Assembly: GCF_053078305.1 (NCBI RefSeq)
Contig: NZ_CP166879.1
Direction: 5' to 3' (one strand)
DNA: 64,000 nt
Position numbers and translations under genes: made by a program. Below are positions 17,585 to 18,658 of the stretch, piece by piece (the first letter of the stretch is position 1; the number at the start of each line of letters is the position of its first letter). The notes below the pieces were generated by a model, which ran no database searches, was not told the DNA's origin, and was given only the letters and a program-made list of their open reading frames with translations.

Positions 17585-18658
17585 ATGAAAAAGACCCGTA
17601 CAGCCAATTTGCACCATCTTTATCATGAACCCTTACCCGAAAACCTGAAGCTCACGCCGAAGGTCGAAGTGGATAATGTTCATCAACGACAGACAACGGA
17701 TGTCTATGAACATGCTTTAACGATTACCGCCTGGCAGCAGATTTACGATCAGCTGCATCCGGGCAAGTTTCATGGTGAATTTACGGAAATTCTACTCGAT
17801 GATATTCAGGTTTTTCGTGAATACACCGGTCTGGCGCTGCGCCAGTCGTGCCTGGTCTGGCCTAACTCGTTCTGGTTTGGCATTCCGGCGACGCGCGGTG
17901 AGCAGGGATTTATCGGTTCGCAATGTCTGGGAAGCGCAGAAATAGCGACGCGCCCCGGTGGAACCGAGTTTGAATTAAGTACGCCGGACGATTACACGAT
18001 CCTGGGCGTAGTGCTTTCTGAAGATGTCATCACCCGTCAGGCTAACTTTTTGCACAATCCGGATCGGGTATTACATATGCTGCGTAGCCAGTCGGCGCTG
18101 GAAGTGAAAGAGCAGCATAAAGCCGCGCTGTGGGGCTTTGTCCAACAGGCGCTGGCGACGTTTTGCGAGAACCCGGAAAATCTTCATCAGCCTGCAGTGC
18201 GAAAAGTGCTGGGGGATAATTTGCTAATGGCGATGGGGGCGATGCTGGAAGAAGCGCAACCAATGGTGACGGCGGAAAGCATCAGTCATCAGAGTTACCG
18301 TAGATTACTTTCCCGCGCCCGTGAATATGTGCTGGAAAACATGTCCGAACCGGTGACGGTGCTGGACTTGTGTAATCAACTGCATGTCAGCCGCCGCACG
18401 CTACAAAACGCGTTTCACGCTATTTTAGGCATTGGCCCGAACGCGTGGCTAAAACGCATTCGCCTGAACGCCGTACGCCGCGAACTGATAAGCCCGTGGT
18501 CGCAAAGCACAACGGTAAAAGACGCCGCCATGCAGTGGGGATTCTGGCATCTGGGGCAATTTGCCACGGATTACCAGCAGCTGTTTGCCGAGAAGCCGTC
18601 GTTGACGTTGCATCAGCGGATGCGGGAATGGGGTGAGGGAGTTACACCCAATCCCTGA
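17585..18658 (+). CDS. eutR: EutR, AraC/XylS-family activator of the eut operon
   Basis: 357 aa with C-terminal AraC-type HTH. Confidence 0.93.

Follow-up and report, generated by a model that had tools for sequence, protein, structure and literature searches.

Introduction

The excludon, known from Listeria, has long antisense 5' or 3' UTRs, and reciprocal expression has been demonstrated for it. For convergent E. coli genes, bidirectional termination driven by collision has been described (Ju et al. 2019, cited in bioRxiv 10.1101/2022.10.23.513370). With regard to coding sequences, Huvet and Stumpf reported 75 convergent overlapping pairs in an E. coli reference genome (PMC4161906), and 3' extension of a reading frame, through either loss of a stop codon or a frameshift, is a recognised origin of convergent overlaps (PMC2478687; PMC4161906).

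Here we analyse two such overlaps, eutR/hemF and yfeR/FlxA-like, in a 64,000-nt stretch of DNA (the window). The window is an E. coli chromosomal segment that carries maeB, the eut operon, hemF-amiA and, further on, ligA-ypeB, yfeH, yfeR, a FlxA-like gene, tRNA genes and gltX, among others. Literature searches on eutR with hemF and on eutR with O145 returned nothing on this junction or allele. From the comparisons described below, the eutR/hemF overlap is very probably the by-product of a deletion, neither designed nor co-evolved, and the yfeR/FlxA-like overlap an older, stable arrangement, with no intrinsic terminator at either junction.

Results

Two convergent overlaps in the window

eutR (17585-18658, plus strand) and hemF (18642-19541, minus strand) converge and overlap by 17 nt at their 3' ends. 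The hemF stop TAA (minus strand; TTA on the plus strand) occupies 18642-18644, and the eutR stop TGA occupies 18656-18658. The parts of this junction are as follows.

17585..18658, plus strand: eutR, 357-aa allele; encodes an AraC-family activator and is the final gene of the eut operon (ORF, Pfam HTH_18)
18630..18633, plus strand: G4 run, site of the 1-nt deletion (alignment; G5 in most E. coli)
18634..18636, plus strand: ancestral eutR stop TGA, now out of frame (read from the sequence, against 350-aa alleles)
18635..18655, plus strand: seven-codon eutR extension EGVTPNP (translation; runs across what was the 5-nt spacer and through the last codons of hemF)
18642..18658, no strand assigned: eutR/hemF overlap, 17 nt (ORF coordinates)
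18642..19541, minus strand: hemF, oxygen-dependent coproporphyrinogen III oxidase, 299 aa (Pfam Coprogen_oxidas)

At the second junction, the FlxA-like gene stops at TGA (minus strand) at 45682-45684 and yfeR at TAG at 45689-45691, giving an overlap of 10 nt. Both overlaps had been reported in an earlier sequence-only reading of this DNA, and their coordinates proved exact: PGAP annotation of related complete genomes agrees. The same overlap between the 357-aa eutR and hemF appears in the NCBI PGAP annotation of ECNB21-M121, O145:H28 RM13514 and others, and the yfeR/FlxA-like overlap is likewise annotated by PGAP in BL21 and EC974. Both are an ordinary, known kind of feature, already annotated by RefSeq. 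Across the syntenic 64 kb in ECNB21-M121, CDS gaps for the nine convergent pairs are -17, 57, 2, 42, -4, -10, 51, 49 and 140 nt; three pairs thus share 17, 4 or 10 nt, and one more has 2 nt between its genes. In the window, cysM (plus strand, ending at 33897) and yfeK (minus strand, beginning at 33900) converge with 2 nt between their stops and no terminator between them.

The identity of both proteins at the first junction is clear from their domains. Residues 262-341 of EutR match Pfam HTH_18, and HTH_AraC also matches; this C-terminal double helix-turn-helix, together with the position of the gene at the end of the eut operon (eutS to eutK to eutR), places EutR in the AraC-XylS family. The window protein is identical to RefSeq WP_000753710.1. 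HemF is covered along its full length by PF01218 (Coprogen_oxidas; E=9.6e-134, residues 7-298 of 299). EutR shares its 90%-identity protein cluster with entries for the 295-aa EutC (ethanolamine ammonia-lyase beta subunit), which looks like a database clustering oddity and not biology.

Origin of the eutR/hemF overlap

In the common allele, which is of the K-12 type and carried by most E. coli, eutR is 1053 nt long and encodes 350 aa. A run of five G residues (G5) lies within TGG GGG TGA, a 5-nt gap separates the gene from hemF, and the junction reads ..GAA/G TGG GGG TGA GGGAG TTA.. on the plus strand. The junction of the window and of ECNB21-M121 reads ..GAA TGG GGT GAG GGA GTT ACA CCC AAT CCC TGA. 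When these junctions were aligned (..TGGGGGTGA.. for K-12 and Ecol_AZ155; ..TGGGGTGAG.. for the window and ECNB21-M121), G4 versus G5 was the sole difference that matters. Gly350 is retained despite the deletion (GGG to GGT), and the old TGA at 18634-18636 is still present. Because loss of 1 nt moves this stop into another frame, we class the eutR/hemF overlap as a frameshift-driven 3' extension. The new EutR stop TGA is the antisense of hemF Val-Arg codons, and the added tail is an antisense reading of the last codons of hemF.

The locus shows several features of such an extension. Orthologues are shorter and end before the neighbouring gene: in K-12, Ecol_AZ155, O157:H7 and other Escherichia, EutR has 350 aa and its gene stops 5 nt short of hemF. 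An identifiable mutation, G5 to G4 at 18630-18633, adjoins the ancestral stop. Homologues have nothing equivalent to the extension, which falls outside the domains, as HTH_18 ends at residue 341; among the cross-species loci, the EGVTPNP tail was not found in EutR of any other species examined. We propose that the starting state in Escherichia was eutR and hemF placed tail to tail with 5 nt between their stop codons. One G would then have been lost, in a minority E. coli lineage, from the G5 run spanning the last sense codon and the eutR stop (TGG GGG TGA to TGG GGT GAG), and translation would run seven codons further (EGVTPNP) to a TGA lying antisense to the Val-Arg codons of hemF. On these sequence comparisons, the overlap is a young, within-species novelty. 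The extension, being beyond the DNA-binding domain, is most likely neutral.

Comparison of the eutR-hemF junction across species

eutR loci were retrieved from 63 places in species-representative genomes. Over about 30 other enterobacterial species, EutR has 350 aa; in detail, this length holds for 29 of the 33 cross-species loci in which hemF is present and eutR is readable in full. The two genes are 5 nt apart in four Escherichia lineages, and the gap is 8 nt in a Pluralibacter MAG, 19 nt in Intestinirhabdus, and 54-150 nt in most Citrobacter, Klebsiella and Salmonella loci (L011-L044); where an insertion is present, it reaches 425-1784 nt. REP-like palindromes lie inside the 54-150 nt spacers and are absent from those of Escherichia. 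An example from the spacer of L011 is GTGCCGGATGCGACGC...CTTATCCGGCCTAC, and we take these palindromes to be REP elements.

Several individual loci deserve comment. An apparent 67-nt overlap in three Escherichia loci was traced to tblastn aligning through the stop codon, and direct translation gave a 5-nt gap in L007 and L008. In E. whittamii, about 1.8 kb is inserted between eutR and hemF, and EutR has 352 aa. eutR is interrupted in Escherichia sp. MOD1-EC7003 (L041, the third of the loci with the apparent 67-nt overlap; the ORF ends after 240 aa) and in Citrobacter amalonaticus AUH_CA_2023_1 (L043; 211 aa), and each of these is either a pseudogene or an assembly error.

The sequence-only reading had inferred constrained co-evolution of the two C-termini and had suggested that conservation of the terminal residues be checked. 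Conservation was found on one side of the junction. The HemF C-terminus, (Q/K)VRDWV, is kept almost everywhere, whether eutR is 5 or about 1800 nt away; in contrast, the last four residues of EutR, which lie beyond HTH_18, vary between genera (REWG, RQWA, QELG, RQWM and others). As conservation of the HemF end does not depend on the gap, the comparison lends no support to co-evolution of the C-termini in eutR/hemF. These alignments indicate that the HemF C-terminus is constrained by HemF itself and that the EutR end is unconstrained. As judged from its distribution, the overlap arose too recently, and occurs too rarely, to have influenced either gene, and it is not a conserved (selected) convergent overlap in the sense of Rogozin et al. 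2002, occurring in a subset of E. coli only.

Population distribution of the G4 allele and alternative explanations

An exact 75-mer carrying G4 was present in 34 of 5426 complete E. coli genomes (0.6%), and the G5 76-mer on the same local haplotype was present in about 2170. The G4 carriers are mainly Shiga-toxin producers of O145:H28 or O145:NM, reported by several laboratories over several years, and they also include baboon, chicken, meat, sewage and human isolates. All inspected carriers encode WP_000753710.1, and the best 4-kb matches to the window are G4 genomes. Among ten 4-kb alleles compared, those with G4 represented at least three synonymous haplotypes of eutR DNA and several of hemF, with the differences between G4 haplotypes falling in clustered short patches. 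Between the eutR of O157:H7 TR01 and that of O145, the indel is the sole difference. Clustered patches are typical of recombination, and the pattern would fit one deletion followed by recombination; independent recurrences of the G4 deletion are possible, the ten-allele comparison being compatible with these as well as with a single origin.

Because loss of 1 nt from a homopolymer is a classic type of error, we considered whether an under-called run had falsely lengthened eutR, making the overlap a sequencing or assembly artefact. The window does contain a second, unique 1-nt homopolymer loss, in ypeB, and this private deletion means that isolated assembly errors are possible in the source genome. 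The eutR allele, however, is independently corroborated: it is identical in the 34 complete genomes from different laboratories and years, its exact 357-aa product is found on at least 1000 contigs in a large protein collection and has its own RefSeq accession, and the window shows only four 1-nt gaps against the closest complete genome over 64 kb, of which only that in ypeB is coding. On these population data we reject sequencing error, which is extremely unlikely as an explanation of G4. A true stop located upstream, for example through a sequencing error, had been named as the finding that would overturn the overlap; eutR does stop 21 nt upstream in most E. coli, but error is very unlikely to have moved the stop here. 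The occurrence of G4 on several eutR and hemF backgrounds might instead suggest recurrent slippage in the G run, making it a quasi-phase-variable tract that switches the length of EutR. We regard this as highly improbable. The tract is only 4 or 5 nt long, synthetic exact-match queries for G6 on the window haplotype and for G4 on the common K-12-type haplotype had no hits, and G4 is far outnumbered by G5 on the same local haplotype; the clustering of differences in patches points to recombination. The run thus does not have the properties of a phase-variable or contingency locus.

A further possibility is that the overlap was selected, either because the C-termini co-evolve or because antisense transcription links the expression of eut to that of hemF, as in an excludon. 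eutR and hemF lie 5 nt apart or overlap throughout Escherichia with no terminator, making mutual antisense read-through likely, and EutR is a virulence regulator in enterohaemorrhagic E. coli whose 357-aa allele marks the O145:H28 lineage. Yet few genomes carry the overlap, in related genera the genes stay 54-150 nt or more apart, HemF is equally conserved at its C-terminus with or without a close neighbour while the EutR tail is unconstrained, and the extension is whatever the hemF antisense happens to encode. Selection for the overlap is therefore very improbable, and origin as a by-product of the deletion remains the preferred explanation.

Termination and transcript overlap

That there is no room for a terminator between eutR and hemF, as the sequence-only reading had stated, was borne out, and it applies equally to the common allele, which has a 5-nt gap and no terminator-like hairpin nearby. 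One weak terminator-like site was detected in 17400-19800, fewer than in shuffled sequence; it lies at 18126-18112, inside eutR and 520 nt from the junction. Folds of the junction were unremarkable for either strand and either allele (z -1.5 to -1.8). A consensus scan and folding revealed no intrinsic bidirectional terminator (G+C-rich stem-loop plus U run) at the eutR/hemF junction, Rfam gave no match there, and no terminator-like hairpin was found at the eutR/hemF or the yfeR/FlxA-like junction. A hidden terminator or structured RNA at the junction was accordingly discarded, as pattern scan, RNA folding and Rfam were all empty.

With no intrinsic terminator at either junction, each transcript must be expected to run antisense into the neighbouring gene. 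Judging from published E. coli work, these antisense transcripts would end by the action of Rho on untranslated RNA, by head-on collisions of RNA polymerases, or both. The RNA 3' of each stop is C-rich relative to G, which is weakly suggestive of Rho loading on untranslated antisense RNA. Transcriptional interference at the junctions, also raised by the sequence-only reading, is plausible.

The yfeR/FlxA-like junction

The second overlap differs from the first in its history. Its parts are the following.

44765..45691, plus strand: yfeR, LysR-family regulator, 308 aa (ORF, annotation in relatives, Pfam)
45682..46023, minus strand: FlxA-like gene, 113 aa (Pfam PF14282; PGAP 'FlxA-like family protein' in BL21 and EC974)
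45682..45691, no strand assigned: yfeR/FlxA-like overlap, 10 nt, TCAGATATAG (ORF coordinates)
46053..46076, minus strand: sigma-28-like promoter motif AAGTT-N13-CCGATA, candidate only (upstream of the FlxA-like gene)

The FlxA-like ORF belongs to the FlxA family by its match to PF14282 (E=2.4e-13; 50.5 bits against a gathering cut-off of 26.3), and a good Shine-Dalgarno sequence, GAGGA, lies 7 nt upstream of its ATG. A sigma-28 (FliA)-like motif, TCAAGTTC-N11-ACCGATAT, is located about 30 nt upstream of this ATG at 46023. The pattern AAGTT-N13-CCGATA has one match in the window against 0.03 expected, a flattering statistic, as the pattern was picked after the site had been seen.

Of the 5426 complete genomes, 1306 have this junction; BL21 and O157:H7 are examples. 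Other genomes, K-12 among them, have yfeN-xapA-xapB-DUF1427-xapR (about 4.4 kb) in place of the FlxA-like gene, and homology between the two arrangements breaks one base past the yfeR stop (window 45692-46140 is polymorphic). The yfeR-yfeN gap of K-12 is 38 nt and contains a strong 10-bp GC hairpin (z -3.7). Among genomes with the FlxA-like arrangement, some have and some lack a copy of an RtT-like sRNA adjoining lysV.

A search for FlxA-like homologues gave eight clusters, which provide context and not a family-wide view. The same 10-nt overlap was found in Pseudocitrobacter faecalis, where the FlxA-like protein is 80% identical and the gltX ... ligA synteny is the same, and in a metagenomic relative whose FlxA-like protein is 53% identical. 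The overlapped bases change from TCAGATATAG to TCAGACGTAA, with both stops unmoved. The yfeR/FlxA-like overlap is thus conserved in the sense of Rogozin et al. 2002, being shared with Pseudocitrobacter faecalis and a more distant relative. The FlxA-like stop is the antisense of conserved Tyr-Gln codons of YfeR, and the YfeR end is identical in K-12, from which the FlxA-like gene is absent. The 10-nt geometry is stable because these YfeR Tyr-Gln codons, whose antisense contains the FlxA-like stop, are conserved. We propose that this overlap is the older, stable arrangement, in which the FlxA-like frame would end at the TGA provided by the antisense of Tyr-Gln.

Variation was also seen within the FlxA-like gene. 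In ECNB21-M121 it has an internal stop (pseudogene; 11514-11855 of the retrieved locus, L073). In alleles frameshifted near the 3' end (P0016 and P0017, E. coli contigs), a 159-aa ORF continues into yfeR and covers about 150 nt of it in antisense. Parts of E. coli appear to be losing this gene to decay.

Other observations in the window

At the 3' end of ypeB (window 43657-43666), the window has a C3 run where K-12 and all 5426 complete genomes have C4. This private deletion, which may be a real mutation or an assembly error, shortens YpeB by 5 aa; as the yfeH stop is at 43677, the 4-nt convergent overlap that ypeB and yfeH usually have becomes a 10-nt gap. At 49240-49545 there are three tRNA-Ala(GGC) genes in tandem, with 115-nt spacing; ECNB21-M121, the closest complete genome, has two. 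Rfam gave matches above the gathering score for naRNA4 (CssrE) at 11288-11369 (plus strand), in the eutG-eutH spacer, and for the ES036 (CssrF) sRNA at 21546-21587 (plus strand), downstream of yfeZ.

Discussion

The eutR/hemF junction is a clean example of a convergent overlap that arose when a short homopolymer at a stop codon lost one base by slippage, and it illustrates that such an overlap need not reflect constraint. Far from being an annotation error, the 357-aa EutR marks a lineage, mainly O145:H28. The yfeR/FlxA-like overlap is, by comparison, conserved across genera. As eutR and hemF are without a terminator throughout Escherichia, transcripts antisense to hemF could arise when the eut operon is induced. 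A more specific set of effects can be imagined, in which the tail of the 357-aa EutR or the 21-nt shift of its stop alters ethanolamine regulation or hemF expression in O145:H28, and in which sigma-28-driven transcription of the FlxA-like gene silences yfeR by antisense read-through. Taken jointly, we consider these effects doubtful, with only a small chance of being correct.

Among described systems, eutR/hemF most closely resembles the convergent overlaps that arise by 3' extension (Pallejà et al. 2008, group iii, PMC2478687; Huvet and Stumpf 2014, PMC4161906), in that a stop-codon mutation extends one frame into the facing gene. As in that class, the orthologues of eutR are shorter and non-overlapping, and the tail has no homology elsewhere. 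Many of the cases of more than 60 nt considered by Pallejà et al. are misannotations, whereas the eutR/hemF overlap is short (17 nt), real and carried by an inherited allele.

The FlxA of E. coli K-12 (PF14282) is sigma-28-dependent, and the 113-aa ORF resembles it in its family match and in the sigma-28-like motif upstream. K-12 FlxA, however, is located in the Qin prophage; the FlxA-like gene described here is chromosomal, lying between yfeR and the lysV-valY-valX-valU tRNA genes, and is absent from K-12.

With regard to transcription, eutR and hemF are comparable to the genes for which collision-driven termination is described (Ju et al. 2019, in the account cited above): they are likewise convergent, have no intrinsic terminator or U-tract, and their transcripts must be expected to overlap. 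As presented in that account, the collision terminators encode a stem-loop that positions the collision, whereas the eutR/hemF junction has no significant stem-loop. Finally, both pairs resemble the excludon in having opposite-strand neighbours whose transcripts would overlap and could repress each other. For eutR/hemF and yfeR/FlxA-like this arrangement is read from DNA sequence, and in place of long antisense UTRs the coding overlap is just 10-17 nt.
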